In this document: positions 33,192 to 63,479 of the stretch, piece after piece
How positions within the stretch are numbered: position 1 is the stretch's first letter
How the letters are laid out: the number at the start of each line of letters is the position of its first letter
Assembly: GCA_012838555.1 (NCBI GenBank)
Contig: DUOZ01000115.1
Span: 2,226 to 66,225, forward strand
Direction of reading: 5' to 3'
DNA: 64,000 nt
Source: a bacterium
GTDB lineage: Bacteria; Bacillota_I; Bacilli_A; RFN20; DUOZ01
The notes under the pieces: generated by a model
Databases searched by the model: none
Told to the model about the DNA's origin: nothing
The model's input: only the letters and a program-made list of their open reading frames with translations
Made by a program: the position numbers and the translations under genes

Positions 33192-36068
<2,877 letters not shown>

Positions 36069-48352: not shown

Positions 48353-48377
48353 GATGAGCTGAATGGCTCATCTTTTT
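48353..48377 (+). terminator. Rho-independent terminator after the metallophosphoesterase gene
   Basis: The stem GATGAGC/GCTCATC has a 6-nt loop and is followed by TTTTT. Confidence 0.6.
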
Positions 48378-48497: not shown

Positions 48498-48537
48498 ATG
48501 AAAGCGCTTGACAGTTTTTTAAAATGTGTTGTATTAT
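48498..48537 (+). promoter_or_regulatory. Promoter of the fructan-locus operon with overlapping cre-like element
   Basis: The -35 TTGACA is at 48508-48513. An 18-nt spacer leads to the -10 TATTAT at 48532-48537. The upstream cre-like sequence ATGAAAGCGCTTGACA lies at 48498-48513, with a perfect left half TGAAAGCG. Confidence 0.4.
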
Positions 48538-48550
48538 TAAATCATAAAAA

Positions 48551-48568
48551 TGTGGTATCGATACCACA
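48551..48568 (+). promoter_or_regulatory. Perfect 18-bp palindrome (LacI-family-type operator) between promoter and RBS
   Basis: TGTGGTATCGATACCACA is centred on CG. It lies 13 nt after the -10 and 4 nt before the AAGGAGG RBS. Confidence 0.6.
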
Positions 48569-48585
48569 CCGAAGGAGGAACTAAA

Positions 48586-49920
48586 GTGAAAAGAGTTAAA
48601 AAGTTTGTTACACTTGCTTTAGCTGCCATGATGCTAGTTGGTTGTGGTGGCAATACTGGTGAAGAAGAATCACCTGATGTAAAAATTGTTAAAATTTGGG
48701 TTCACAAATCCGAAGCAGAAGATGAAGGTAAGGTGTACTCAGCTGTTGCAGATTTATTTAATGAACAAGAAATTAAGACTGCTGATGGCACCAAAACAAT
48801 TAAGATGAAATTAGAATTTAAGAACAGTGCTGAAACACTTTCTAATGCTATTAGTTCAGAAATTCTAACTGGTGGTCTTCCAGATATCGTTGCTGTTGAC
48901 GCTCCTAATATTGCAGCGTATGCAGATGCAGGAATCTTAACAAGTATAGATGATTATTTAACGACAGAAACCATTGATAGCTACGTAAGTAGTGTTATCG
49001 AACAAAGTACTATTGATGGAAAAATTTATGCTTTATCTGCTATGGATGCTCCAACAGGACTTTATTACAACAAAGACTTACTAAAACAAGTAGGTTATAC
49101 AGATGAAGATTTTGGAAGTATTGAAAATCCTTGGTCATGGGTTGATGTTAAAGAAGCTATGGCTAAGTTAAAAGAAAAAGGTTTATCTTATCAAATTAAA
49201 CTAAACCTTGGCTTTGGTGGAGACGAAGGATTAATGTATCTATATTCTGCTCTTGTTTACTCAGCTGGTGGAGACTTCATTACTAGCGAAGGTAAAACTG
49301 AAGGTGCTTTAAATAGTGAAGAAACATTAGCAGGTATTAGAGTCCTTGAAGATATCTTAAGAGTAGATACTAATGGCGATTCATGGTATTACAATGGTGC
49401 CAACACAGATGCTTTAGCAGCTGGTGAAGTTGCGTTTGAAGTCTTTGGCCCTTGGAGTATTGCATCTATTAAGAAAAATTATCCTGAATTTGTAAATAGT
49501 TATGATATTATGCCATTCCCAGTTTATGAAGATGAAAATGGTAATAAGGGAAGTTTAGCTGCTGGTAGTGGATCTTGGGGATTTGGTGTTACACCAAACG
49601 CTAAAGACAAAGACGCTGCAGCTAAAGTACTTGCTTACTTAACTGGACCAGAAGCAAGTAGATTATTATATGAATCAATTGGTACATTCCCAACACATAA
49701 ATCACTATTTGATGAAATTAGTGATTTCCATACAGGTCCATTAAATTCATTAGCAGTTATTTTAGAAAGAGCTGCGACACCACGTCCAAAAATGGTTAAC
49801 TATCCAAAACTAAGCAGTGGATACAGTAAAATCATTTCTTATATTGAAACAATGCATGAATCTGAAGAATATGACCTAGTTGGGTTTATCAATACACAAA
49901 TCGCTCAAATTGATAGATAG
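48586..49920 (+). CDS. ABC transporter substrate-binding lipoprotein (CUT1 / SBP_bac_1 family)
   Basis: It has a GTG start after GGAGG and a signal peptide with lipobox LVGC. The protein is about 444 aa with extracellular solute-binding protein family 1 topology. Confidence 0.8.
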   Translation: MKRVKKFVTLALAAMMLVGCGGNTGEEESPDVKIVKIWVHKSEAEDEGKVYSAVADLFNEQEIKTADGTKTIKMKLEFKNSAETLSNAISSEILTGGLPDIVAVDAPNIAAYADAGILTSIDDYLTTETIDSYVSSVIEQSTIDGKIYALSAMDAPTGLYYNKDLLKQVGYTDEDFGSIENPWSWVDVKEAMAKLKEKGLSYQIKLNLGFGGDEGLMYLYSALVYSAGGDFITSEGKTEGALNSEETLAGIRVLEDILRVDTNGDSWYYNGANTDALAAGEVAFEVFGPWSIASIKKNYPEFVNSYDIMPFPVYEDENGNKGSLAAGSGSWGFGVTPNAKDKDAAAKVLAYLTGPEASRLLYESIGTFPTHKSLFDEISDFHTGPLNSLAVILERAATPRPKMVNYPKLSSGYSKIISYIETMHESEEYDLVGFINTQIAQIDR

Positions 49921-49928
49921 GTCTTATT

Positions 49929-50861
49929 ATGAGTGTTAGTTCAGTAAAAAAACCTAAAAAAATGTATTTTAGGTTTATGGGAAAGAGTTACCGTATATCC
50001 GATACTATAATCGGATATACGTTCCTCTTACCAGCCTTAATACTGGGCATAATCTTCATTATTATGCCGATAGTCATATCTTTAGCTTATGCATTTACTG
50101 ATGCGAACTTATTAAAGTTGAATCAGGTTAATTTCGTCGGACTTAAAAACTTTGAATTCTTGATAAGTGATGAAACTTTATGGCAAGCATTCAAAAATAC
50201 GATGGAATTTGTTATTAAGGTAGTACCACTTCAGTTACTAACTGCACTAGGTCTAGCCTTACTTGTTAATAAGAAAATGAAAGGTAATACTTTCTTTAGG
50301 TGGGCATTCTTTGCTCCAGTTATGTTATCATTAGCAGTTACTTCGATGTTATGGATTAACTTGCTTAACGAACAAGATGGCTTAATTAATGCAATATTAA
50401 CGATGATGGGTTTACCAAAAGAAAAATTCTTAGGTGACCCTAAGATGGCGATGGATTTAATTGTTTTAATCTCAGCATGGCAAGGTGCAGGTTACCAAAT
50501 GTTAATCTTCTTGTCAGGCTTAAAAAATATTCCTAAAGAAATGTATGAAGCAGCAAGTATTGATGGTGCTAATAAAAGACAACAATTCTTTAGAATTACT
50601 TTACCAAGTATTAGACCAACCTTTTCATTCGTATTAATTACCATGCTCATTGGAGCCTTTAGATTAATTACTCAGCCGATGATCATGACACAAGGTGGTC
50701 CAATTAATAAGACTTTAACGATGTCTTATTATATTTATCAACAAGGTATCACTTACCGTGATGTAGGTTATTCAAGTGCGATTGCTCTAGTTTATACCAT
50801 CTTTATGGCAACAATTGCACTAACACTTCGAAAAATCACGGAAAAGGACAACACTGTTTAA
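49929..50861 (+). CDS. ABC sugar permease (MalF/UgpA-like)
   Basis: It has six TM helices and the EAA loop EAASIDGANKRQQFFRITLP. Confidence 0.8.
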   Translation: MSVSSVKKPKKMYFRFMGKSYRISDTIIGYTFLLPALILGIIFIIMPIVISLAYAFTDANLLKLNQVNFVGLKNFEFLISDETLWQAFKNTMEFVIKVVPLQLLTALGLALLVNKKMKGNTFFRWAFFAPVMLSLAVTSMLWINLLNEQDGLINAILTMMGLPKEKFLGDPKMAMDLIVLISAWQGAGYQMLIFLSGLKNIPKEMYEAASIDGANKRQQFFRITLPSIRPTFSFVLITMLIGAFRLITQPMIMTQGGPINKTLTMSYYIYQQGITYRDVGYSSAIALVYTIFMATIALTLRKITEKDNTV

Positions 50862-50869
50862 GGAGGGGT

Positions 50870-51787
50870 ATGATGGAACTTAAATTAAAAAGTGAATCAC
50901 TAAATTATATCCCGCCAAAAAAGAAAAGTTTAACACCAAAGAGAGTAATTAAATCAACATTATTTTACGCATTTATGCTACTACTAGCTGCTATATTCAC
51001 TTTCCCAGTTTTGTGGATGGTAGTAAACAGCTTTAAATCACAAAAAGAAGTATATGAAACCATTAATTCTCTTAGAACATTCCTACCATATACATGGGAT
51101 GTAACGAAATGGTTTGAATCATATAAGAATTTATTCTCAACATTTGACTATTTTGGTCAATCAATCATTAACAGTATCGTTTATGCCTCAATTACGATAA
51201 CAGGCGTCCTTATTATTAATTCAATCGCAGGTTATGCTTTATCTAGATTCGTATTCCCAGGTCATAAACTAATTGTTAATATTATTATCTTAATTCTAAT
51301 TGTCCCTGTGGAAACATCAATCGTTCCATTATACGTTATCTTAAAGAACTTGGGACTTTTAGACCCTAATCTAAGAATTATTGGTTATTTAATTCCTGGA
51401 TTAGTTAGTCCATTTTATATCTTTATGTTTAGAAATTACTTCTTAGGAATACCTAAAGAGTTAGAAGAGGCTGCTTATATTGATGGAGCAGGTAGATTAA
51501 AGACATTTTTTGGAATCATAATTCCGGTATCGTTACCAGTCTTTGCGACAGTTGCCATATTTACCTTTATGGGTTCATGGAATGAATATGTCTTTGCTCA
51601 ATTAATGTTCTCTTCTCCAGCTCAACAGCCATTACAAGTATTCCTACAGTTAATCAATAACTTTAATCCAAAAGATATATCCTTAGTAATGGCATCATTA
51701 ACATTCTCAACGATACCAATTGCGATTGTATATATCTTCTGTCAACGTTACATTGTCGAAGGTGTAGCATTCACAGGATTAAAATAA
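50870..51787 (+). CDS. ABC sugar permease (MalG/UgpE-like)
   Basis: It has six TM helices and the EAA loop EEAAYIDGAGRLKTFFGIIIP. Confidence 0.8.
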   Translation: MMELKLKSESLNYIPPKKKSLTPKRVIKSTLFYAFMLLLAAIFTFPVLWMVVNSFKSQKEVYETINSLRTFLPYTWDVTKWFESYKNLFSTFDYFGQSIINSIVYASITITGVLIINSIAGYALSRFVFPGHKLIVNIIILILIVPVETSIVPLYVILKNLGLLDPNLRIIGYLIPGLVSPFYIFMFRNYFLGIPKELEEAAYIDGAGRLKTFFGIIIPVSLPVFATVAIFTFMGSWNEYVFAQLMFSSPAQQPLQVFLQLINNFNPKDISLVMASLTFSTIPIAIVYIFCQRYIVEGVAFTGLK

Positions 51788-51808: not shown

Positions 51809-54178
51809 ATGAAAAAGACATTATCACTTATATTTATGATGTCAATCATTGTTTCCTTTCTAGGTTGTGCTCAAACTAATATGAACAGTGATTCTCAATT
51901 TATCAATGATTATAAAGATCCTAATCAAGATTCATTACTCTTATCTTTATCTTTTGATGAAGAAAGTGGTAATCAAGTAGAGGATAAAATTACTTCATCT
52001 TTAGCAACTATTAATTATGTGTTTAATGATGCTAAATATAAAAGTAATGAAGATCCTCAAAGGACAAAAAGGTCTGCTGTGAGCGGAAGTGCTCTAGCAT
52101 TTGATGGATATTCTAATTATATTGAGTATCCTTCATCAACTATTCAAGTTCATGGACCTTACTTAACAATTGATGTCTTTGTAAGTCCAAGGATGTTTGA
52201 ATGGGATGACCCATATGCCTTATATAACGGTAATGAAAACTTACAAGTAATACTAGGTCAATATAACAAGGATAGTAAAGCTGGATTTGTATTAGGGATG
52301 CATAAATATGGTAACTTTTCATTCCAAGTTGGACTTGGAGATAGATGGGTTAAGTTATGGAATGAATGGAATAAGTTAGACCGTTATAAATGGAATCATT
52401 TAACTGCCGTCTATAATGGTGAAACTGGCTTCATGGCTTTATATAAAAATGGTGAGATTGTTAACTATGAAGAAAAAGTATTTGGAAGTATAGCACCTGC
52501 TAATGTTCCTCTTTACATTGGTAAAAGTCATCAACCTCAACGTGTCGGAGTCTTTGAACTAAATATGTTTAATGGCTTAATGGATGAACTAAGAATTTAT
52601 AATAAAGCCTTAAATGAAGAAGATATCTATAACTATCATCAAAGTTATCTAATAGATGGAAGTATAAAAGAAGTTAAGTTTGAAGATGCTTGGTTAAATG
52701 CAGATATTTTAGATGATGATATCTATCATCCTAAATATCATGCAACACCCCCACAGCATTGGATGAATGAACCACACGCCTTATTTTATTACAAAGGTTA
52801 TTATCATATGTTCTATCAATTTAATCTTACCGGTCCTTATTGGCGACAAATCACTTGGGGTCATTGGGTAAGTAAAGATTTAGTTAGATGGGAACATGTT
52901 AAAGAAGCTATTGTCATGGATGAAAGAAGTGTTGTTAAAGACGGCGCTTGGAGTGGCAATATGGCTTATAAACAAGATGGAACTCCGGTCTTATTTATTA
53001 CAGCAGGTGATGATGGAAAGTCTTATGGACAATATAGTAATCAAAATATTGCTATCGCTGTCCCTAAAGACTTAAATGACCCTTATTTAACAGAGTGGGA
53101 AATCCATGATTCCTTAGTTGTAACTCATACTTCTAGTATGGGAAGAATGAATGAGTTTAGAGATCCTAATGTTTACTATGAAGATGGAGTTTACTATATG
53201 GTTGTTAGTGCTTCAAAACATGATGGAAAAGGAACAGCCTTATTATTTACAACAAGTGATGATTCATTTACATCATGGAATTATGAAGGGAATTTATTTA
53301 CACCAAAGAATTTCTATCCATACATGGGAAGCACTTGGGAATTGGTGAATTTAGTTAAAGTTCATAACGAAAGTAAAACATTGTCTAAATATCTATTCGT
53401 CTTTTCACCTTCAGGAAGTGGTTCAGATAATGATGTTTATTATTATCTAGGAGATTTTGATAAAAAGACAAAGAGATTTATACCTGAACATGATGATCCA
53501 CTCTTAATGGATTATGGAAATAATGTCTTTACTGGACCGACGATTTACACAGAACCTCATAGTGGAAGAGTCTTAATAAGTTCAATCTTACAAGATCAAA
53601 GAACAGGTAGAGAACATTATGATGCAGGTTGGGCCTTTATGGCTGGAATACCTCGAGAATTATCTTTAGATTATGAAGGTAATTTAAAGGTCACACCGAT
53701 TAAAGAATTAGAGACTTTAAAAGGTGATTCATTAGCAAGTTTAAAAGATACATCAATAAATGTTGCTAATGAAGAGTTAGACAAAGTGGATAGCTCTCAA
53801 GTCTATGTGCATTTAAAAATTAGTACATCTGAGTCTACTAACTTTGGTTTAAAAATTAAAAAAGATGAATTAGGTCGAGAAACAATCATTGGTTATGATA
53901 AATCGACAAAGCAAATATATATTGATACCACTAATTCAGGAAATACAAATGTCAAAGGTATTTTTGGAGGGTATCTAGAATTAATTGATGGTCAAACACT
54001 TGATTTAGAAGTTTATGTCGATGGAGCGACAATTGAGTGTTACATCAATGGATATAAGACAATCTCTGCGATGGTTTATAACACTGCTACTAAGATGGAA
54101 TTCTATGCGGATGATAAAGTAATGATTGATTTACTAGAAATAAACTATATGCAGAGTATCAAGGAGGGGCTTAAATGA
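51809..54178 (+). CDS. GH32 lipoprotein A: N-terminal LamG/ConA-like domain plus GH32 beta-propeller and C-terminal beta-sandwich, with variant active-site motifs
   Basis: The lipobox is FLGC. The LamG-like domain reads LSLSFDEESGNQVEDK...AFDGYSNYIEY. GH32 block A is HWMNEPHALFYY, with Glu at 52769-52771. FSGS is present as WSGNMAY, RDP as FRDPNV, and the EC motif as TWELVN. Confidence 0.8.
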   Translation: MKKTLSLIFMMSIIVSFLGCAQTNMNSDSQFINDYKDPNQDSLLLSLSFDEESGNQVEDKITSSLATINYVFNDAKYKSNEDPQRTKRSAVSGSALAFDGYSNYIEYPSSTIQVHGPYLTIDVFVSPRMFEWDDPYALYNGNENLQVILGQYNKDSKAGFVLGMHKYGNFSFQVGLGDRWVKLWNEWNKLDRYKWNHLTAVYNGETGFMALYKNGEIVNYEEKVFGSIAPANVPLYIGKSHQPQRVGVFELNMFNGLMDELRIYNKALNEEDIYNYHQSYLIDGSIKEVKFEDAWLNADILDDDIYHPKYHATPPQHWMNEPHALFYYKGYYHMFYQFNLTGPYWRQITWGHWVSKDLVRWEHVKEAIVMDERSVVKDGAWSGNMAYKQDGTPVLFITAGDDGKSYGQYSNQNIAIAVPKDLNDPYLTEWEIHDSLVVTHTSSMGRMNEFRDPNVYYEDGVYYMVVSASKHDGKGTALLFTTSDDSFTSWNYEGNLFTPKNFYPYMGSTWELVNLVKVHNESKTLSKYLFVFSPSGSGSDNDVYYYLGDFDKKTKRFIPEHDDPLLMDYGNNVFTGPTIYTEPHSGRVLISSILQDQRTGREHYDAGWAFMAGIPRELSLDYEGNLKVTPIKELETLKGDSLASLKDTSINVANEELDKVDSSQVYVHLKISTSESTNFGLKIKKDELGRETIIGYDKSTKQIYIDTTNSGNTNVKGIFGGYLELIDGQTLDLEVYVDGATIECYINGYKTISAMVYNTATKMEFYADDKVMIDLLEINYMQSIKEGLK

Positions 54179-56532
54179 AAAAAACCTTAACTAAAATTTT
54201 AACATTTATCTTTATATTATTAGTAGCTTCTAGTTGTAATTCTTCTGGTAGTGATAAAGATTTAATGCTATATCTTTCATTTGATGAAGGAAGTGGCAAT
54301 AAGGTTGAAGATAAAGCTAAGAAATTAGATACAGCGACAGTTCAATATGTCTTTAATAATCCAAAGTTTCAACCCTCACCTCAAGATCCTCAGTGGCGAG
54401 AAAACGGTGTGATAAATGGAGCGTTACTGTTTGATGGGTATTCAAATTATATCCGTTATAACTATGAAGACATTAAGATAAGAGGTTCTTCTTTATCAAT
54501 AAGTGTGTTTGTAGCCCCTAGAGCTTTTGAATGGGATGACCCAAATGCTAAAGAAAAGGGTACTGATAAATTAACAGCGATTGCATCTCAATATAGTAAA
54601 GATACCAATAGTGGATTTATTCTAGGTTATCAACGTCACGGTGCATTTAGTTTCCAAGTTGGTCTTGGAGATCGTTGGTTAACTATTTGGGATGAGGGAA
54701 ATCCACTTAAGAAGTATGAATGGAACCATATAAGTGCGGTATTTGATGGTAAAAAAGGTAGAATGGCTCTTTATTTAAACGGAGAATTAATTAATGAAAA
54801 ATTATTTTTTGAAGGAGCTGAAATCGCACCAGCATATGATGAACCATTATTAATTGGTAGAAACAATTATCCTGGTTCAAATGCAACTGCTAGTTTAAAT
54901 ATGGTAAGTGGATTACTAGATGAATTAAAAATTTATAACCGAGTTTTAAGTACTAGTGAGATTGAAAAATATGTTAACGGTATTGACATACCAAAATTAG
55001 AATATGAAGATATTGCGTTAGTTAATATTCTGCAAGATGATTATTACAAAACTCAATATCATGGTGGTCCATATCAACATTGGATGAATGAACCACATGC
55101 GCCACTTTATTATAACGGTTATTATCACTTATTCTTCCAACATAATTTATTTGGTCCTTATTTTAGAAATATTGGTTGGGGACATTTAGTAAGTGAAGAT
55201 ATGGTCAATTGGCGTCCATTAAAGGAAATTATTATGCCAAGTGCAAATACAGTAGCACCTGATGGAGTTTGGTCAGGTGGAGCCACTTATGATAAAGATG
55301 GTGTACCAGTTTTATTCTTCACAGCAGGTAATGATTCATTTAGAAAAGATGGATTAATCAGCAATCAAAATATCGGTATTGCTCGACCTAAAGATAAAAA
55401 CGATCCATTACTTCAAGAATGGGTTGTAGGTGAAGAATTAGTAATTGCTCAACAGCCTGGTCAAGGTAAACCGGGTGAATTTAGAGATGCTCACCTGTTT
55501 ATTGAAGATGATACTTATTATTTCTTAATTGGTTCAGCAAGCACTAAACCAAATACAGGTGGAACAGCACTTCTATTTACTACTAAGGATGATTTAGAAA
55601 ACTGGACTTATAAAGGTCAATTATTTGAGATTCAAAATCAACCTGGTGATTTAGGTAGTGTGTGGGAGTTACCAGTCTTGTTACCGGTTTATAACGAAGC
55701 TAAAACAATTAAAAAGTATGTCTTTATTATCTCGCCAGCACCAGCCGATAGAGCAGATAACGACATTTATTACTGGATAGGTGATTTTGATAAAGTAAAT
55801 GGACGCTTTATCCCTGATGCAAGTTTTGGTAATAAACCTAGACTGCTTGATTATGGAAACAACGTCTTTACAGGTCCTTCAGGATTTATTGATCCAAAGA
55901 CAGGTAAGGCAATTATCTTCTCAATTATGCAAGATCAAAGATTACCTGGACATGTTGCTAGTTCTGGTTGGGCTAATAGTGTTGGATTAGCTAGAGAAAT
56001 CTACTTAAATGATGATGGTAGTGATCTAAAGATTAGACCAGTTGAAGCAATTAAAAACTTAGAAGACAAAACTCTAGCCGAGTTTAAAAATAAATCAGTT
56101 AATGACGCTAATGCGTTATTAAAAGATGTTAAAGGAGATATGCTTTATATCCATGTTGAATTTAAAAATGTGAGTGCAAGTAACTTTGGAATTAAAGTTA
56201 GAAAGAATGACAAAGTACTTGAAGAAACAGCTTTCTACTATGATGTAACTACATCTACAGTAGGAGTTAGAACAGGACTTAGTGGAGCTTATAGTAGTAA
56301 CCAAAATATTGCAGGTAAATTCTATGGACCATTAAGTTTAGATGAAAACACATTAAAAATGGATTTATATCTAGATAGATCATTAATTGAAGGATTCTTT
56401 AACTCTGATAAAGCAATCTCAGCTCGAGTGTATCCTGATATCACCTCATTAGGAATTGAATTATTTGAAGAAGGTGGCACGGTCGAGATTAAGAATATGG
56501 TAGTTAAGACCATGCGCTCAATTTATGAATAG
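54175..56532 (+). CDS. GH32 lipoprotein B: paralogue of A with LamG-like N-terminal domain and variant motifs
   Basis: The lipobox is ASSC. The LamG-like domain reads LYLSFDEGSGNKVEDK...LFDGYSNYIRY. GH32 block A is HWMNEPHAPLYY, with Glu at 55090-55092. RDP is replaced by FRDAHL and the EC motif by VWELPV. It overlaps the upstream gene by 4 nt. Confidence 0.8.
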   Translation: MKKTLTKILTFIFILLVASSCNSSGSDKDLMLYLSFDEGSGNKVEDKAKKLDTATVQYVFNNPKFQPSPQDPQWRENGVINGALLFDGYSNYIRYNYEDIKIRGSSLSISVFVAPRAFEWDDPNAKEKGTDKLTAIASQYSKDTNSGFILGYQRHGAFSFQVGLGDRWLTIWDEGNPLKKYEWNHISAVFDGKKGRMALYLNGELINEKLFFEGAEIAPAYDEPLLIGRNNYPGSNATASLNMVSGLLDELKIYNRVLSTSEIEKYVNGIDIPKLEYEDIALVNILQDDYYKTQYHGGPYQHWMNEPHAPLYYNGYYHLFFQHNLFGPYFRNIGWGHLVSEDMVNWRPLKEIIMPSANTVAPDGVWSGGATYDKDGVPVLFFTAGNDSFRKDGLISNQNIGIARPKDKNDPLLQEWVVGEELVIAQQPGQGKPGEFRDAHLFIEDDTYYFLIGSASTKPNTGGTALLFTTKDDLENWTYKGQLFEIQNQPGDLGSVWELPVLLPVYNEAKTIKKYVFIISPAPADRADNDIYYWIGDFDKVNGRFIPDASFGNKPRLLDYGNNVFTGPSGFIDPKTGKAIIFSIMQDQRLPGHVASSGWANSVGLAREIYLNDDGSDLKIRPVEAIKNLEDKTLAEFKNKSVNDANALLKDVKGDMLYIHVEFKNVSASNFGIKVRKNDKVLEETAFYYDVTTSTVGVRTGLSGAYSSNQNIAGKFYGPLSLDENTLKMDLYLDRSLIEGFFNSDKAISARVYPDITSLGIELFEEGGTVEIKNMVVKTMRSIYE

Positions 56533-56546
56533 AGGTGGGAAATGAA

Positions 56547-58583
56547 ATGAAAAGAATAACTAGTTTGGTAATGATTGGTATTATGCTCTTATTGTTTGGA
56601 TGTAATGATACCACAGTAAAAGAAATTACTAACCCAAGCTTTGAAACAGGAACATTAAGAGGTTGGGAAATAAAAGGAGAAGCCTTTAGTAATAGTGGAG
56701 TTATCTTTGATGATAAAGATAGTAAAGGAAATTATTACAATCAAGAGGGAGACTTCTTCTTCTATGGTGGAAAAGCCAAAAAAGGCTCTGTTGGTGAATT
56801 GTTATCAAATGAATTTATTTTAAGTGGAAATGGATTAATCGGTTTTAAAATTGGAGCCGGTAAGAATTATGAAAAATGTTATGTTGCCTTAATTGATAGT
56901 AAGGGTAATGTACTTGTTACTCGAGGCAATTATGAATTCGATGAAAATGACTCTGCAGATACATTACACCGCGTAATCTTAGATGCATCGAGTCACGTTG
57001 GAAAAAAAGTAAGAATTAAGGTTGTTGATAATGATAGTGGTGTAGATGGATATAACTACATCAATGTTGATGACTTTATAGTGAATTATCAAGGAGTTGT
57101 AGAACCAGTGGGAAAAGTAGCCAAAGCACATCAGTATGTCTTAGATAACATGCACAAAGTTAATCCTCGTTATCGTCAGACATATCATGCAATGCCCCCG
57201 CTTAATTGGGGGAACGATCCGAATGGATTAATTTATTATCAAGGAAAAGGTCATTTATTCTTCCAATTCAATCCTTATGATTCTGTTTGGGGTCCAATGC
57301 ATTGGGGGCATTACACTACCGAAGACTTTATTAAGTGGGAGTTGCAACCAGTTGCATTAGCACCAGACAAGGATTATGACAATCAATTTGGAGCCTTTAG
57401 CGGTACAGCGATTGAAAAGGACGGAAAGCTCTACTTAATGTATACAGGTGTAGCTAATGACTTACAACAACAAGCTCTAGCAGTCTCAAGTGATGGAATT
57501 ACGTTTGAGAAATTAAACCGTAATCCAGTTATAAGTGTCAATCAATTACCAAAAGGAGCTTCACCAAAAGACTTTAGAGATCCAAAAGTCTTTTATAAGG
57601 ACGGAAGTTACTATGCCATTATTGGTAGTAGGATGAACGGGTATGGAATGATTTTAATGTATAAATCTCATAATTTAACTTCATGGGAATATGTAGGAGA
57701 AGTTATGAATAGTTCCAATCCAAGTGAACCTAATTTCTATCAACTAAGTGGAGTTTATGAATGTCCTGATTTCTTTGAAATTGATGGTAAAGAAGTGATT
57801 ATTGCATCACCCCAATTCTTACCTCAAGATGGAAACAAATTCGAGAACATCCATTCAGTTGTCTATATGATTGGTAACTTTAACTATGAGACTGGAAGGT
57901 TTACTTATGATGAATTTATTGAATTTGACAGTGGATTTGATTTCTATGCGGCTCAAACATTAAAACATGAAGATGGTAGAACAATCTTAATCGCTTGGAA
58001 ACAAATGTGGGACCGTACTTTAGTTACTCAAGCAGATAACTGGGTAGGCTCATACACATTACCAAGAGAATTAACTTATAAAAATAACCGCATTTATCAA
58101 GCTCCAGTTAGAGAAATCGAAAATTATCGTAAGAACCATGTGAGCTATACTAATCAAGTTATTGATGAAAAATTAAAACTTGATAAGGTTGTTGGAACGA
58201 CTGTTGAATTAGAGTTTGAATTAGAAATGAATAATGCTTCTAAAGCAGGAGTTAAATTATTCAAAGGAGCTTATAACGAAACAGTCTTATCTTATGACAA
58301 AGCTACACAAACATTAACATTTGACCGCTCTAGAAGTGGTAAGTCAATTTCAGGAGCAGAATCAAATGACTTCTATCGTGCTGAAACGATTCCATTAATT
58401 GATGGAAAAATTAAATTAAGAATTTTCCTTGATGTATCAAGTGTGGAAGTCTTTATTAACGATGGATATATGACTATGACAAGTAATGTTTATCCAGATG
58501 AGTTTGATGTTGGCATTGAGTTCTTTTCTGAAAATGGTCAAGCAAGAATTACATCATTAGATAAATATGACATTATAGTTTAA
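56547..58583 (+). CDS. GH32 lipoprotein C: canonical beta-fructofuranosidase/fructanase with N-terminal CBM-like module
   Basis: The start MKRIT follows an AGAGGTGGG RBS, and the lipobox is LFGC. The N-terminal module runs from NPSFETGTLRGW to YINVDDFIV. Canonical motifs are present: NWGNDPNGLIYY (Asp at 57216-57218), FSGTA, FRDPKV and YECPDFF. Confidence 0.85.
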   Translation: MKRITSLVMIGIMLLLFGCNDTTVKEITNPSFETGTLRGWEIKGEAFSNSGVIFDDKDSKGNYYNQEGDFFFYGGKAKKGSVGELLSNEFILSGNGLIGFKIGAGKNYEKCYVALIDSKGNVLVTRGNYEFDENDSADTLHRVILDASSHVGKKVRIKVVDNDSGVDGYNYINVDDFIVNYQGVVEPVGKVAKAHQYVLDNMHKVNPRYRQTYHAMPPLNWGNDPNGLIYYQGKGHLFFQFNPYDSVWGPMHWGHYTTEDFIKWELQPVALAPDKDYDNQFGAFSGTAIEKDGKLYLMYTGVANDLQQQALAVSSDGITFEKLNRNPVISVNQLPKGASPKDFRDPKVFYKDGSYYAIIGSRMNGYGMILMYKSHNLTSWEYVGEVMNSSNPSEPNFYQLSGVYECPDFFEIDGKEVIIASPQFLPQDGNKFENIHSVVYMIGNFNYETGRFTYDEFIEFDSGFDFYAAQTLKHEDGRTILIAWKQMWDRTLVTQADNWVGSYTLPRELTYKNNRIYQAPVREIENYRKNHVSYTNQVIDEKLKLDKVVGTTVELEFELEMNNASKAGVKLFKGAYNETVLSYDKATQTLTFDRSRSGKSISGAESNDFYRAETIPLIDGKIKLRIFLDVSSVEVFINDGYMTMTSNVYPDEFDVGIEFFSENGQARITSLDKYDIIV

Positions 58584-58741
58584 AAATTTAATTTGATTAT
58601 TTAGGTCATAAAAAAGGAAAAAGGTTAGATTCATCCAAGTCATGTCGGGGTGATGATCAGGGAGAATCAAACCTTGTATATATAGCATACCACTTTTATG
58701 GCCTGAATATAAACAAAAAATGCAAAATGGAGGTAAAAAGT

Positions 58742-61492
58742 ATGAAAAACTTAGTAAAACGCATTTCAATCACCCTCCTTGCAGTGTTGACGCTATCAAT
58801 TGCATCAGCATGTAACAATCAAGGAGGTACTTCCATCCCTACAACTATCGAAAACGGTGGTTTTGAAGAAGGTACTCAAGAAACCTGGACAGGATGGACA
58901 AGAACAGGAACTGCCTTTTCATCTCGTGGTGTTGTTAATGATACACAGGTTAATGGCATAACTGTAGATAAAGAAGGCGAATATTGGTTTAGTGGACTAG
59001 ATGGTGGAACTCAAAAGATGACTGGTACACTTACATCAAATGTCTTTAAATTAACAGGAACAGGCCATATCGCTTTTAAAATGGGCGCAGCAAAATATGG
59101 AGACAAAATCTTTGTTGAATTCATTGAAGATGGTACTGATACTGTTTTAGCAAAAGTTACAAACAGTGATTACAATGAACCATGGATTACTGACCAAATG
59201 ATTCGTAAAATTGTTGACTTATCAGAACATTTAGATAAGAATATCTATATTAAAATTACTGATAATGATAACAATGATGATTATGGTTATGTTAACCTTG
59301 ATGACTTTGTTATTTGTCTAACTCAAGAAGATGTTAATAAATATACTACAGAAAGAAATAACCAATTAGAAGCTTATTCTGAACCAGAATTTGAAGAAGA
59401 TGAAACTTCAACAACAATTCAAAACCCTGGTTTTGAAACTGGAGATTTAACTGGTTGGAAAATCTTAAGTGGTACAGCCTTTGGTGGAAACGTAATTGTT
59501 CCTACTTCACAATACTACTGGACAGATAGATCAGTTTATGGTGAAGGTGAATACTACTTAGATGGCAATAACAATGGTGAAATTGCTGAATCTGCAGTAG
59601 GTGTAGTTCGTTCATCTAAATTCACTCTTGCAGGCGATGGCTTTATTTCATTCATGATTGGTGCTGCACCAACTAATTGTTATATTGCTATTAATGATGG
59701 TGTTACTGGTGAAGAATTAATTAAAGTTACAAATACTACCTTTAAAGACCCTGCTTTACCATTAACATTAAGAAGAGTTTATGTTGATGCCTCTGCTTAT
59801 TTAAATAAAGTATTATATATCACAATCGTGGATAACAATCCTTCAAGTGGTTTTGCCTTTATCACTGCGGATGATTTCCATGTAAGTATGACTGAAGAAG
59901 AAGTTGTTTCATTAATGAAATATCAATATGATAAGATTATGAATGAAACTTATACTGATTCATACAATTCATTATTACACTTACAAAACTATTATCAAAA
60001 CTATGAATATCCATTTGAACTTCCTGCATTAGTCTTTGAAAATAAAGCAAGTGGAGTTGTTAGTGGAATTAAAGAAGATGTTAACTTAAATGATTTCATT
60101 AAAGATGTCGTTATTAAATACGGTAGTGTAGATGTTCCAGCTGCAATTACTAAAGTTGTCTTTGAAGAAGAAACATTTACAGATGGTTTCGATTCATTTG
60201 ATTTAGCAAATGAAGGTACATATGTAGTTTACTATGGTGCTACATATGAAGGAGAAACTATTGAAGATTCATTCAATATCGTTGTGGCAGGTAACGTTAA
60301 CGTTGTTAACGGTGGCTTTGAAACTGGCGATATGACTGGTTGGACAGTTGTTGAAGGTGAAATTGATGACGGTGTTATCGATGCTGAAACATACTGGGGC
60401 GAAAAGATTGCTTATAACCGTCATGGTAACTATCACTTTGATGGTTGGACAGCAACTAGCGATGAACCAGCAGGATATGTCTTACGTTCAAATACATTTG
60501 TTCTATCAGGAACAGGTTGGGCTTCATTCATGATGGGTGGAAACGCTGCTAGAGTACGTGTTAGTTTAGCAGATGGTACACCAATTGGATACTTTACTAA
60601 CTATAAATTCCTTGATGAAGGATTCCCACTCTTAGCTACAGGTGGAAGATGGGCTACAATGACTAGATACTTTGTTGATTTATCAGCTTACCTAGGCGAA
60701 GAAGTCTATGTTGAATTAATCGATGACGCTAATGCTGCTGGTTGGGCAGTTGCCTTCTTTGATGAAATTAACTTCTACCATGAAACTACACCAGATGTAG
60801 AAAATGGATTTGATACAGTTCTAGAATCTAATGAAACTGGTGAAGAAGTTCAAATCCACTGGGAATATGCAGATAATGCTTATATCATTAATGGTGGCTT
60901 TGAAACTGGTGACATGACTGGATGGACTAGTGAAGAAGTTAAAGTTAATGCTGTTATTAGCGATTCATTCTACTGGAATGAAAAACTTCCATACAATCAA
61001 ACTGGTAATTACCACTTTGATGGATGGAGTTCAGGTGTAAATGAAAATGAAACTTATGCTTTAAGATCAACAGTATTTACACTACATGGAACAGGATATA
61101 TCTCTGTTAAAATGGGTGGAAATGCTGCAGCAGTTAAAGTTTACTTAGAAGATGGAACTCTTGTAGGTTTCTATAAACAAAACCGTTTCAGCGATACTAA
61201 CTTCCCTAACTTAGATCAAGGTGGTTCATGGGCTGATATGGGTAAATACTTCTTTGACTTAAGTGATTATGTAGGTCAAAAACTATATATCGAATTATTA
61301 GATATTGAAGTTGAAGGTTGGGCAGTTGCCTTCTTTGATGACGTAATTACTTACTATGAAGAATTACCTGATATTGATAATGGCTTTGACACTGTAACTT
61401 TATACTCTCTAGATGATGATGGTGAATTTACAGTTGAACGTAGTCATAACATTCCATGGCAATTAGCATCTAATCTAGTAGAAGCTGAATAA
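58742..61492 (+). CDS. Surface lipoprotein made of four tandem CBM-like beta-sandwich modules (homologous to the N-terminal module of GH32-C) and no catalytic domain
   Basis: It has a GGAGG RBS and a signal peptide with lipobox IASAC. The four repeats start at NGGFEEGT (about 58847), NPGFETGD (about 59417), NGGFETGDMTGW (about 60305) and NGGFETGDMTGW (about 60893). Each ends in a ..DDF.. motif. Confidence 0.6.
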   Translation: MKNLVKRISITLLAVLTLSIASACNNQGGTSIPTTIENGGFEEGTQETWTGWTRTGTAFSSRGVVNDTQVNGITVDKEGEYWFSGLDGGTQKMTGTLTSNVFKLTGTGHIAFKMGAAKYGDKIFVEFIEDGTDTVLAKVTNSDYNEPWITDQMIRKIVDLSEHLDKNIYIKITDNDNNDDYGYVNLDDFVICLTQEDVNKYTTERNNQLEAYSEPEFEEDETSTTIQNPGFETGDLTGWKILSGTAFGGNVIVPTSQYYWTDRSVYGEGEYYLDGNNNGEIAESAVGVVRSSKFTLAGDGFISFMIGAAPTNCYIAINDGVTGEELIKVTNTTFKDPALPLTLRRVYVDASAYLNKVLYITIVDNNPSSGFAFITADDFHVSMTEEEVVSLMKYQYDKIMNETYTDSYNSLLHLQNYYQNYEYPFELPALVFENKASGVVSGIKEDVNLNDFIKDVVIKYGSVDVPAAITKVVFEEETFTDGFDSFDLANEGTYVVYYGATYEGETIEDSFNIVVAGNVNVVNGGFETGDMTGWTVVEGEIDDGVIDAETYWGEKIAYNRHGNYHFDGWTATSDEPAGYVLRSNTFVLSGTGWASFMMGGNAARVRVSLADGTPIGYFTNYKFLDEGFPLLATGGRWATMTRYFVDLSAYLGEEVYVELIDDANAAGWAVAFFDEINFYHETTPDVENGFDTVLESNETGEEVQIHWEYADNAYIINGGFETGDMTGWTSEEVKVNAVISDSFYWNEKLPYNQTGNYHFDGWSSGVNENETYALRSTVFTLHGTGYISVKMGGNAAAVKVYLEDGTLVGFYKQNRFSDTNFPNLDQGGSWADMGKYFFDLSDYVGQKLYIELLDIEVEGWAVAFFDDVITYYEELPDIDNGFDTVTLYSLDDDGEFTVERSHNIPWQLASNLVEAE
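60305..61367 (+). repeat. Intragenic tandem duplication (modules 3 and 4) with near-identical DNA stretches
   Basis: A 26-nt identical run GGTTGGGCAGTTGCCTTCTTTGATGA occurs at 60741 and again at 61317. AACGGTGGCTTTGAAACTGG occurs at about 60308, with a 1-mismatch copy at about 60889. Confidence 0.6.
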
Positions 61493-61500
61493 TCCTTTAA

Positions 61501-61537
61501 TCAGAGGATGAAAAAGTCTCATCCTCTGATTTATTTT
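61501..61537 (+). terminator. Strong rho-independent terminator after the CBM-repeat lipoprotein gene
   Basis: An 11-bp stem TCAGAGGATGA/TCATCCTCTGA has a 7-nt loop and is followed by TTTATTTTAT. Confidence 0.7.
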
Positions 61538-61567: not shown

Positions 61568-62548
61568 GTGGTCGATTTGGTTCAGATTAAAGATGTAGCA
61601 AAAAGAGCCGGATGCGGAACGAGCACTGTATCAAGAGTTCTAAATAATTCTGGCTATGTCTCAAAAGAAACACGAGAAAGAATTGAAAGAGCAATCAAAG
61701 AATTAAAATATGTGCCTAATCAGATGGGAAGAAATCTTAAGCGACTTAGTTCGCATTTAGTAGCATTATTTGTTCCAACAATCTCTCACCCATTCTTCTC
61801 TAAAATTGCATATTACATTGAAAATTATCTTTATAAATATGGGTTTAGAATGATTATAGTATCTTCTCAAGATAATAAGGAAAAAGAAGTTAAACTTCTT
61901 GATATGATAAAAAATAAACAAGTTGATGGGATTATCTTTATTACGACTCATATTCATGATGATGTTAATTTTGAAGGAATGTCTATTGTTACATTAGATA
62001 GAAAAATACCAGGAGTCCCTTGTATTGCCTCAAATAACTATGAGTCAACATATGAAGCGGTTGAATATTTAGTTAAACTAGGTTGTAAAAAAATTGGTTA
62101 TATCGGTGGTTTAACTAAAGTAGGTTCTGAAGTTGAAAAAAGATATGAAGCTTATTGTGATGTCATGAATAAGTATCAATTAGAGATTATTGATTGTCGT
62201 AAAGAAATATTACACGGAGAAGAGTACAATATCTCAAAAGAGTTTATTGATGAAAATCCTGATTTGGATGCGATTTTTGCTCAAAGTGATATATTTGCCC
62301 ATTGTTGTTATCTAATTGAATTGCAAAGAGGTAGAAAGATACCTGAAGATATTAAGATTGTTGGATATGATGGTGTTATGGATGAAATTTACCAACATCC
62401 TACTTTTACTGTTGTTAGGCAAAACTTAGATAAATTAAGTGAAAAAATTGTTCAACAATTAGTTAGACGAATGAAAAAGAAAAAGTGTGAGAAACTTTCA
62501 ATTGTACCTGCTGATTTTATTATTGGTGAAACTACTGAGGTGAAATAA
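61568..62548 (+). CDS. LacI-family transcriptional regulator
   Basis: It has a GTG or TTG start. The N-terminal HTH is IKDVAKRAGCGTSTVSRVLNN. The C-terminus is a periplasmic-binding-protein-like sugar-binding domain. Confidence 0.85.
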   Translation: MVDLVQIKDVAKRAGCGTSTVSRVLNNSGYVSKETRERIERAIKELKYVPNQMGRNLKRLSSHLVALFVPTISHPFFSKIAYYIENYLYKYGFRMIIVSSQDNKEKEVKLLDMIKNKQVDGIIFITTHIHDDVNFEGMSIVTLDRKIPGVPCIASNNYESTYEAVEYLVKLGCKKIGYIGGLTKVGSEVEKRYEAYCDVMNKYQLEIIDCRKEILHGEEYNISKEFIDENPDLDAIFAQSDIFAHCCYLIELQRGRKIPEDIKIVGYDGVMDEIYQHPTFTVVRQNLDKLSEKIVQQLVRRMKKKKCEKLSIVPADFIIGETTEVK

Positions 62549-62549
62549 G

Positions 62550-63479
62550 ATGATTTTATGTATTGGTGAAATACTTGTTGATTTAATTGGTAAAGAAGTA
62601 AATGGACGTACTAGTTATGATGTTTTTGCCGGAGGTGCTCCATTTAACGTAGCTTGTGGAATTAAAAATTTCGGAGGCAATGTTATATTTATCGGTAATG
62701 TTGGTGACGACATTATGGGTAGGTTTTTATTAGACTTCGCTAATAAAAGAAGTTTTGATAAATTATTAATTTCTCTAGATCAAGAACATAATACAACACT
62801 TGCTTTTGTTAAAAATGATGAAGATGGTGAAAGAAGTTTTTGCTTTCATCGTAAAAATACTGCTGATTATTTTTTTAATACAGATTACTTTGCTGAAATT
62901 GAAAATGCTGATATTGTTCATGTAGGTACTTTAATGTTATCAAATGAAGAAGGAAGAAAAATGGCAGACTTAATCATTGAAACAACAAAGAAAAGTGGTA
63001 AGTTATTAAGTCTTGATATTAACTTTAGAGATGATATTTATAAGAGCAAAGAAGAAGCAATTAAAGTATATCAACATTATGCTTCAAAGGCTGATATAAT
63101 TAAATATTCACTAGATGAACTTCAATTATTTTCATCTAAGCATGATATATATCAAGCTTTAAATGAAATAGCAAAGCCAAATCAATTAGTCTTTTTAACC
63201 TTAGGTAAAGAAGGTTCACTATGTTATTACAATCAAAATGTCGTTAAATCACATTCAATAAAAGTAATGTCTGTGGATACAACTGGAGCTGGTGATGCCT
63301 TTTATGGTGCGATTTTATCCCAACTTGACCGTATAGGATTTGAAAACTTTGTTAAGGATAAGAATGTAATTAAAGAGGTGTTAAGATTTGCTAATCTTAC
63401 TGGAGCTTTAACAACAACAAAAAAAGGCGCGATTGATGCCTTACCTACTTTAGAGGAGATTAATACATTTACTAAGTAA
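62550..63479 (+). CDS. Fructokinase (pfkB/ribokinase family)
   Basis: Its N-terminus reads ILCIGEILVDLIG and it carries the C-terminal TTGAGDAF motif. It is 309 aa and lies 1 nt after the LacI stop. Confidence 0.8.
   Translation: MILCIGEILVDLIGKEVNGRTSYDVFAGGAPFNVACGIKNFGGNVIFIGNVGDDIMGRFLLDFANKRSFDKLLISLDQEHNTTLAFVKNDEDGERSFCFHRKNTADYFFNTDYFAEIENADIVHVGTLMLSNEEGRKMADLIIETTKKSGKLLSLDINFRDDIYKSKEEAIKVYQHYASKADIIKYSLDELQLFSSKHDIYQALNEIAKPNQLVFLTLGKEGSLCYYNQNVVKSHSIKVMSVDTTGAGDAFYGAILSQLDRIGFENFVKDKNVIKEVLRFANLTGALTTTKKGAIDALPTLEEINTFTK

Follow-up and report, generated by a model that had tools for sequence, protein, structure and literature searches.

We analysed a 64-kb window, the whole stretch taken from contig DUOZ01000115.1 of a genome of ~30% GC, in which a + strand gene run ends with the region of a 921-aa lipoprotein, here called LP. 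LP is probably a lipid-anchored protein for multivalent fructan capture, holding an array of family 38 carbohydrate-binding modules (CBM38) in trans to surface lipoproteins with endo-type glycoside hydrolase family 32 (GH32) domains. Among the readings weighed, a surface fructan-binding role like that of the surface glycan-binding proteins (SGBPs) appears the best supported and the most likely. The open reading frames (ORFs) of LP and of its upstream neighbour, the GH32 lipoprotein GH32-C, were confirmed as an earlier note on this DNA had described them.

Judged by homology, the module present four times in LP (M1 to M4) and once in GH32-C (GH32C_N) is a CBM38 module. The earlier note had called it CBM-like and proposed CBM38 among the families for testing. 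It does belong to a carbohydrate-binding family, but not to an unclassified one, being homologous in hidden Markov model (HMM) and BLASTP searches to the repeats that define CBM38 in the cycloinulo-oligosaccharide fructanotransferases (CFTases). According to PMC10076258, CBM38, once named X39, corresponds to residues 32-389 in the Paenibacillus macerans CFTase, has two β-sandwich domains, and binds levan and inulin with low micromolar affinity. Our comparison used the P. polymyxa and Bacillus circulans CFTase orthologs in place of this founder, AAG47946.1.

An exhaustive HMMER search with an 18-module profile found 2,412 module-bearing representatives of 50%-identity clusters at E <= 1e-3 and 310 at E <= 1e-30. 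The best 145 new representatives include 22 large GH32 enzymes, in which several modules flank a core of a laminin G-like domain (LamG, Laminin_G_3 in Pfam) and GH32. A search with one of these 22 enzymes, P0138, recovered two named CFTases, those of Bacillus (Niallia) circulans (P0318; BAA24360.1/O52973) and P. polymyxa (P0357; 1,333 aa, in a cluster including QDY82655.1 and AAL82574.1/Q8RLU3). The module HMM matches P0318 four times and P0357 at 76-244 (1.7e-57), 261-397 (3.6e-16) and 1169-1328 (8e-34). The first two of the latter fall inside the CBM38 region.

By BLASTP, LP residues 525-859 match P0357 residues 77-378 with an E-value of 1.6e-41. M3 is 48% identical to module 1 of the P. polymyxa CFTase (residues ~78-244), and the two have in common the signature (Y/W)W-x-E-(K/R)-x-x-YN-x-x-G-x-YH-x-(D/N)-GW. 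A Defluviitalea GH32 enzyme carries the CAZy/dbCAN annotation CBM38(44-189)+CBM38(221-367)+CBM38(409-527)+GH32(808-1121)+CBM38(1313-1448) (PMC7355431). The HMM layout of P0138, with modules at 39-207, 223-391 and 406-558, GH32 at 813-1309 and another module at 1331-1494, is essentially the same and gives indirect support for the CBM38 membership. CBM66 was also considered as the module identity and rejected, the modules not being LamG/ConA-like ones related to the C-terminal domain of SacC.

The proposed homology of the N-terminal ~160 residues of GH32-C with the four LP modules was confirmed by both BLASTP and Smith-Waterman alignment. GH32-C residues ~25-220 give four BLASTP matches, at LP 6-196, 225-419, 531-667 and 720-878 (E-values of 5e-22, 1e-20, 3e-8 and 1e-8 in this order), and the module pairs score 16-72 as Smith-Waterman z-scores against shuffled sequences. 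GH32C_N is 39% identical to M1, 38% to M2 and 28-29% to M3 and M4. The start motif holds as N(G/P)(G/S)FE, at LP residues 43, 233, 528 and 722 and at GH32-C residue 33, whereas the suggested DDF ending fits GH32C_N, M1 and M2 only, as M3 ends with FFDE and M4 with FFDD. The GH32-C module alone, as the query of a word-index homolog search, gave two matches.

A recent internal duplication of M3 and M4 had been read from a 26-nt identical DNA stretch. This stretch exists (60740-60765 = 61316-61341, GGTTGGGCAGTTGCCTTCTTTGATGA); it belongs to the part that encodes the conserved GWAVAFFD motif, and the repeat stretches found on either side share only ~73-74% identity. Comparison with an LP ortholog, P0002, does not bear out the recent origin. 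M3 and M4 of LP are 74% and 77% identical to their respective counterparts in P0002, versus 53% to each other at the protein level. Hence, the duplication is older than the species split, and a recent one is rejected as M3 is closer to the ortholog's M3 than to M4 of LP. Among the LP copies, M4 most resembles the one M3 that three-module homologs have.

The ORF of LP begins with ATG 58727; GGAGG follows at 58729-58733 and another ATG at 58742. This latter ATG is probably the start because of the position of the GGAGG and because a 100%-identical database protein (P0001) has 916 aa. The lipobox reads IASAC, and its Cys is residue 29 in the 921-aa numbering (codon 58811-58813). Between M2 and M3 lie ~130 non-module residues (~392-523), which are kept across the ~720-aa core family; the domain predicted there may be called Ig-like, a label read from the strand pattern of the AlphaFold2 (AF2) model and not from a fold search. 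The claim that LP lacks a catalytic domain is upheld, since the Pfam scan of LP gave no family above threshold and its AF2 model contains only β-sandwiches, helices and the Ig-like domain.

The AF2 model of full-length LP is all-β-sandwich with a predicted local distance difference test score (pLDDT) of 91.8 and a predicted TM-score (pTM) of 0.73, and that of the GH32-C module has 91.1 and 0.88, respectively. The predicted fold of the modules, a β-sandwich of ~130-170 residues, agrees with CBM38 membership. We know of no solved CBM38 structure. The earlier suggestion of a fold like CBM4/9/16/22 is right in kind, but the Pfam score for CBM_4_9 (PF02018) is below the gathering threshold and this membership is rejected. 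NTTRR-F1 (NF033675) is rejected as well, with 44.5 bits versus a cut-off of 70 over the first ~37 module residues only.

Searches of the PDB by sequence, with LP and with the profile of 18 modules, found nothing but weak first-strand matches to 8xmz and CBM61. With the full-length LP model as query, the Foldseek matches were all generic proteins of several β-sandwiches, for example reelin, Cry toxins and MAM domains. The nearest solved folds are all <=17% identical, with the best Foldseek E-value of 3e-5 and TM-scores of 0.4-0.65. Those nearest, TmCBM61 (2xom) and a porphyran-binding CBM (8xmz), have the same β-jelly-roll topology and the N-terminal NGxFE..W motif in common with the modules.

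The close homologs of LP number 389. Of these, 120 were listed, none with a Pfam annotation, and their module number varies, being three in 87, four in 28 and five in 5. The family core of ~720 aa consists of M1, M2, the helices with the Ig-like region and M3, and the M3-type copies range from one to three or more. A lipobox is found in 112 of 119 members. LP relatives occur in at least 104 species-representative genomes, and the 80 listed, all metagenome-assembled genomes (MAGs), come mostly from animal guts (rabbit, ruminant, mouse and chicken). The carriers are Oscillospiraceae, Lachnospiraceae, Christensenellaceae and other Clostridia, and a few Bacilli that are the nearest to this window.

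Among the more distant relatives, multi-module proteins grow as large as 3,900 aa, with up to ten modules. In eleven such non-GH32 members scanned, no catalytic Pfam domain was found but only Ig-like or FIVAR-type spacers. The giant relatives include P0125 (3,900 aa, 10 modules) and P0149 (3,220 aa), with ~275-aa spacers, and in some loci (L091-L093) a single LamG-GH32 gene has two or three multi-module paralogs next to it. The giant proteins and the paralogous genes suggest lineage-specific expansion of the binding apparatus.

Two further observations concern the spread of the family. The fructan locus of the homolog P0052 (L001, L003, L004 and L005; ~17.4-21.5 kb in locus coordinates) has a tyrosine integrase ~5 kb downstream, with Mob_Pre (L001 and L005), TnpV (L001) and DUF6291 (L001, L004 and L005) also nearby, and the identical protein appears in 239 blocks of the collection. 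Thus, this locus may ride on a mobilisable element. A contig labelled 'uncultured Bacteroidales' (L013, CAZYFI010000002.1) encodes a 71%-identical LP in the same gene order as a Bacilli MAG (L011) and this window, so it is probably mis-binned.

The genomic context of the family was counted in the 80 listed species-level loci of the at least 104 genomes. GH32 genes lie in the flanks of 78 loci, and the other two are cut at the LP gene end. An LP gene and a LamG-GH32 gene are paired on the same strand in 74 loci, with a gap of <=300 bp in 62; in most pairs with a wider gap, one intervening GH32 gene fills it. Three distant multi-module members (P0128, P0145 and P0161) adjoin LamG-GH32 genes, too. 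Hence, the module is associated with GH32 both in fusion, in GH32-C and 22 of the 145 representatives, and by adjacency.

All 74 LamG-GH32 partners have WMNE, while the LamG-less GH32s in the same loci have W-x-N-D wherever the motif was found (25 of 27). The Glu of the WMNE-type nucleophile motif is characteristic of endo-inulinases (PMC6042768), and the CFTases read WMNEA there. The two LamG-GH32 lipoproteins of this window, GH32-A and GH32-B, are 37% (over ~770 aa; E-values of 8e-163 with P0357 and 2e-170 with P0318) and 40-41% (E ~1e-179) identical, respectively, to the LamG+GH32 core of the CFTases. Thus, a CFTase amounts to CBM38 modules with a GH32-A/B-like core and one further CBM38. 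Since the parts that neighbouring genes encode separately in the gut Firmicutes are joined in the CFTases, this Rosetta-stone evidence points to joint action of LP and the endo-type GH32. By their sequence, GH32-A and GH32-B may be plain endo-inulinases or endo-levanases, or else transfructosylating or cyclising enzymes.

The features of the operon and of LP are collected in the table. The promoter-like site is likely the operon start and the hairpin after LP is likely its end, to go by their sequences. With these two sites, SBP through LP looks like a single transcription unit. All five secreted products of it, SBP, GH32-A, GH32-B, GH32-C and LP, have lipoprotein signal peptides with lipoboxes. 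The exo-type assignment of GH32-C comes from its motifs WGNDPNG, FRDP and YECPD, and its alternative start at ATG 56547 is possible.

Features of the fructan operon, its flanking genes and the LP modules in the window
Feature	Coordinates	Strand	Basis or remark
Terminator-like hairpin	48353-48372		closes the gene preceding the operon
Sigma-70-like promoter match, TTGACA-18-TATTAT	48508-48537	+	consensus match only, 11/12, best in scan; just 5' of the SBP gene
ABC solute-binding lipoprotein (SBP; SBP_bac_1)	48550-49920	+	lipobox LVGC; Pfam E 3.8e-36
Two ABC permease genes	49929-50861, 50870-51787	+	ORFs; BPD_transp_1 on counterparts in L001-L010
GH32-A, lipoprotein, Laminin_G_3 + GH32 catalytic domain	51809-54178	+	Pfam; endo-type WMNEP
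GH32-B, lipoprotein, Laminin_G_3 + GH32	54175-56532	+	Pfam; WMNEP; GH32-A paralog, 44% identity
GH32-C, lipoprotein, N-terminal CBM38-type module + exo-type GH32	56535-58583	+	682 aa; Pfam, NCBIfam
CBM38-type module of GH32-C	56619-57098	+	residues 29-188
LP, four-module non-catalytic lipoprotein	58727-61492	+	921-aa ORF; likely start 58742
LP module M1	58841-59329	+	residues 39-201
LP module M2	59411-59899	+	residues 229-391
LP inter-module region between M2 and M3	59900-60295	+	helices 390-405 and 415-424, Ig-like β domain ~435-520; AF2 secondary structure
LP module M3	60296-60796	+	residues 524-690; CFTase-module-1 type
LP module M4	60878-61378	+	residues 718-884; old M3 paralog
Intrinsic-terminator-like hairpin	61499-61531	+	13-bp stem and T-tract; 7 nt past the LP stop codon
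LacI-family regulator	61568-62548	+	ORF; helix-turn-helix-like N-terminus
PfkB-family sugar kinase, fructokinase-like	62550-63479	+	ORF; PfkB Pfam match on counterpart genes

Several of these neighbours recur in the related loci. By tblastn, counterparts were found in 55-58 of the 80 loci for the permeases and in 55 each for the regulator and the kinase, and the regulator counterparts in L001-L009 have LacI and Peripla_BP Pfam matches. The Clostridia-type loci L001-L010 carry a ~500-aa GH32 with neither LamG nor the module, which is presumed cytoplasmic.

The Rfam and tRNA scans of the whole window found nothing. The terminator scan flagged a perfect 12-bp inverted repeat (CGTATATCCGAT...ATCGGATATACG) at 49992-50021, within the first permease gene, but without a convincing T-tract. 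A GH2 β-galactosidase gene (952 aa) elsewhere in the window, at 33210-36068 among housekeeping genes for PcrA/UvrD, LigA, GatA/GatB and formate-tetrahydrofolate ligase, appears unrelated to the fructan operon.

The following mechanism can be proposed. A single transcript would cover SBP through LP, presumably with the LacI regulator encoded next to it in control. LP, GH32-A, GH32-B, GH32-C and the ABC solute-binding protein would all be held on the outer side of the membrane by their lipoboxes. LP would hold long chains of fructan, inulin and/or levan, by avidity through several sites of low to moderate affinity. GH32-A and GH32-B, with their endo-type WMNEP, would cut the chains into oligosaccharides, which GH32-C, of exo-type and with its own single CBM38, would trim. 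The ABC system would then import the products, and the PfkB kinase would phosphorylate fructose.

Several points weigh against this proposal. The operon has no ABC ATPase gene and the 64-kb window no cytoplasmic (signal-less) GH32, so the downstream steps are incomplete here. With identities of only 26-33% to the CFTase modules, M1, M2 and GH32C_N could differ from them in specificity. The residues that every module type shares (N, F, E, W, G and D, in the first and last strands) look structural. The experimental evidence on CBM38 is that of one enzyme, the P. macerans CFTase. Fructan binding by LP and its standalone family, the linkage bound, the cooperation with the enzymes and the regulation are all what we infer.

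The strict pairing can also be read differently. LP might be mainly a scaffold whose modules or Ig-like/helical region bind the partner GH32 lipoproteins, glycan binding being secondary or absent. The same-strand pairing in 74 of 80 loci, the fusion of equivalent parts in the CFTases and the pTM of 0.73, which for a multidomain model of 921 aa points to a rather rigid architecture, would suit it, as would the levan utilisome of Bacteroides, where SGBP and endo-levanase are always associated (bioRxiv 10.1101/2022.08.15.503959). We nonetheless consider it unlikely, since the homologous CFTase region itself is reported to bind inulin and levan (PMC10076258) and the M3-type copy number of one to three or more fits polymer avidity better than a fixed protein interface. 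The scaffold and binding roles are not mutually exclusive. A further idea, also doubtful, is a physical complex of LP with the WMNE-type LamG-GH32 lipoproteins at the surface, a monoderm 'fructan utilisome' or split CFTase, in which the CBM38 array, beyond tethering inulin, feeds or shapes the chain into defined, possibly cyclic fructo-oligosaccharides for selfish ABC uptake. If so, the LP family would mark the primary degraders of long-chain inulin among uncultured Oscillospiraceae, Lachnospiraceae and Christensenellaceae.

The ligand might be other than fructan, such as a different glycan of plant or host origin or a polymer of the cell envelope, with LP as an adhesin or anchor travelling with GH32 genes. 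The β-jelly-roll fold is promiscuous in specificity, its nearest solved examples bind porphyran, galactan, xylan or glucans or are MAM or gingipain adhesin domains, and M1 and M2 are only distant relatives of the tested CFTase region. However, GH32 is the sole catalytic domain found fused to the module (22 of the best 145 new representatives), no catalytic Pfam domain occurs in the eleven non-GH32 members scanned, and GH32 is the context in 78 of 80 close and 3 of 3 distant loci, so that this alternative seems quite improbable. Highly improbable, in our judgment, is a catalytic or product-shaping role of LP, alone or with GH32-A/B, such as directing transfructosylation or cyclisation as in the CFTases. 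LP has no detectable catalytic motif or domain, and the 37-41% identity to CFTases fits an ordinary endo-inulinase or endo-levanase equally well. Fructan capture at the surface thus stays the preferred reading of LP.

No prebiotics are more widely used than the inulin-type fructans. To our knowledge, the surface capture of long fructan chains by Gram-positive gut bacteria is largely unexplained, and the only mechanistic model of fructan capture in the literature searched is the levan utilisome of Bacteroides. We found no account in that literature of a multi-CBM38 lipoprotein standing by itself in monoderm gut bacteria as the conserved companion of endo-type GH32s. The earlier remark that such proteins are rarely described stands in this respect but not for the protein family, which is common with its 389 close homologs and 2,412 module-bearing representatives. 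The domain family is known and the fold class ordinary, while the standalone lipoprotein arrangement appears new.

The present assignment gives the CBM38 name and a testable function to a large 'hypothetical' family without Pfam annotation. This family is tightly coupled to endo-type GH32 across uncultured Firmicutes of herbivore and rodent guts, and the CFTases are a natural fusion supporting the coupling. The confident AF2 models and the (Y/W)W-x-E...YN-x-x-G-x-YH-x-(D/N)-GW signature offer direct mutagenesis targets, and the LP/LamG-GH32 gene pair could act as a metagenomic marker of primary fructan degraders. LP would be the Gram-positive fructan counterpart of the SGBPs, which would not surprise a CAZyme specialist.

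Among the known systems, the CBM38 of the P. macerans, P. polymyxa and B. circulans CFTases is alike in the module family, the β-sandwich, the tandem copies and the association with LamG and WMNE-type GH32. In the CFTases and other GH32s of Paenibacillaceae, however, the modules are fused in cis to the catalytic core, whereas LP is a separate lipoprotein, with 3-5 modules and the Ig-like spacer in its family. A lipobox is absent from all 22 GH32-fused relatives examined, and many related Paenibacillus GH32s carry SLH domains instead. Conceptually, LP is like Sas6 and Sas20 of Ruminococcus bromii, standalone surface CBM proteins that tether starch near the degrading enzymes. These differ from LP in the glycan (starch versus fructan), the modules (CBM26/74 versus CBM38) and the attachment (dockerin-cohesin amylosome versus lipid anchor).

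The CBM66 of Bacillus subtilis SacC is likewise a fructan-directed CBM attached to GH32, and binds the non-reducing end of levan, according to PMC10076258 and PMC13003330. The closest functional parallel is Bt1761, the levan SGBP of Bacteroides thetaiotaomicron, which is also a non-catalytic surface lipoprotein of a fructan locus, beside an endo-acting GH32 lipoprotein. Bt1761 and the endo-levanase Bt1760 cooperatively hold one long levan chain (bioRxiv 10.1101/2022.08.15.503959), and the mechanism proposed for LP follows this by analogy. Bt1761 is unrelated to LP in sequence and fold, with two Ig-like domains, an α/β globular domain and a single site. In being a non-catalytic lipoprotein of a glycan utilisation locus, LP is like the SusE/F-like SGBPs of Bacteroidota. 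SusC/SusD genes are missing from the LP operon, and transport there is by an ABC system whose SBP is a lipoprotein, so LP is an SGBP analogue and not a member. Bt1761 docks on SusC in the outer membrane, while LP would sit on the cytoplasmic membrane with an ABC importer.

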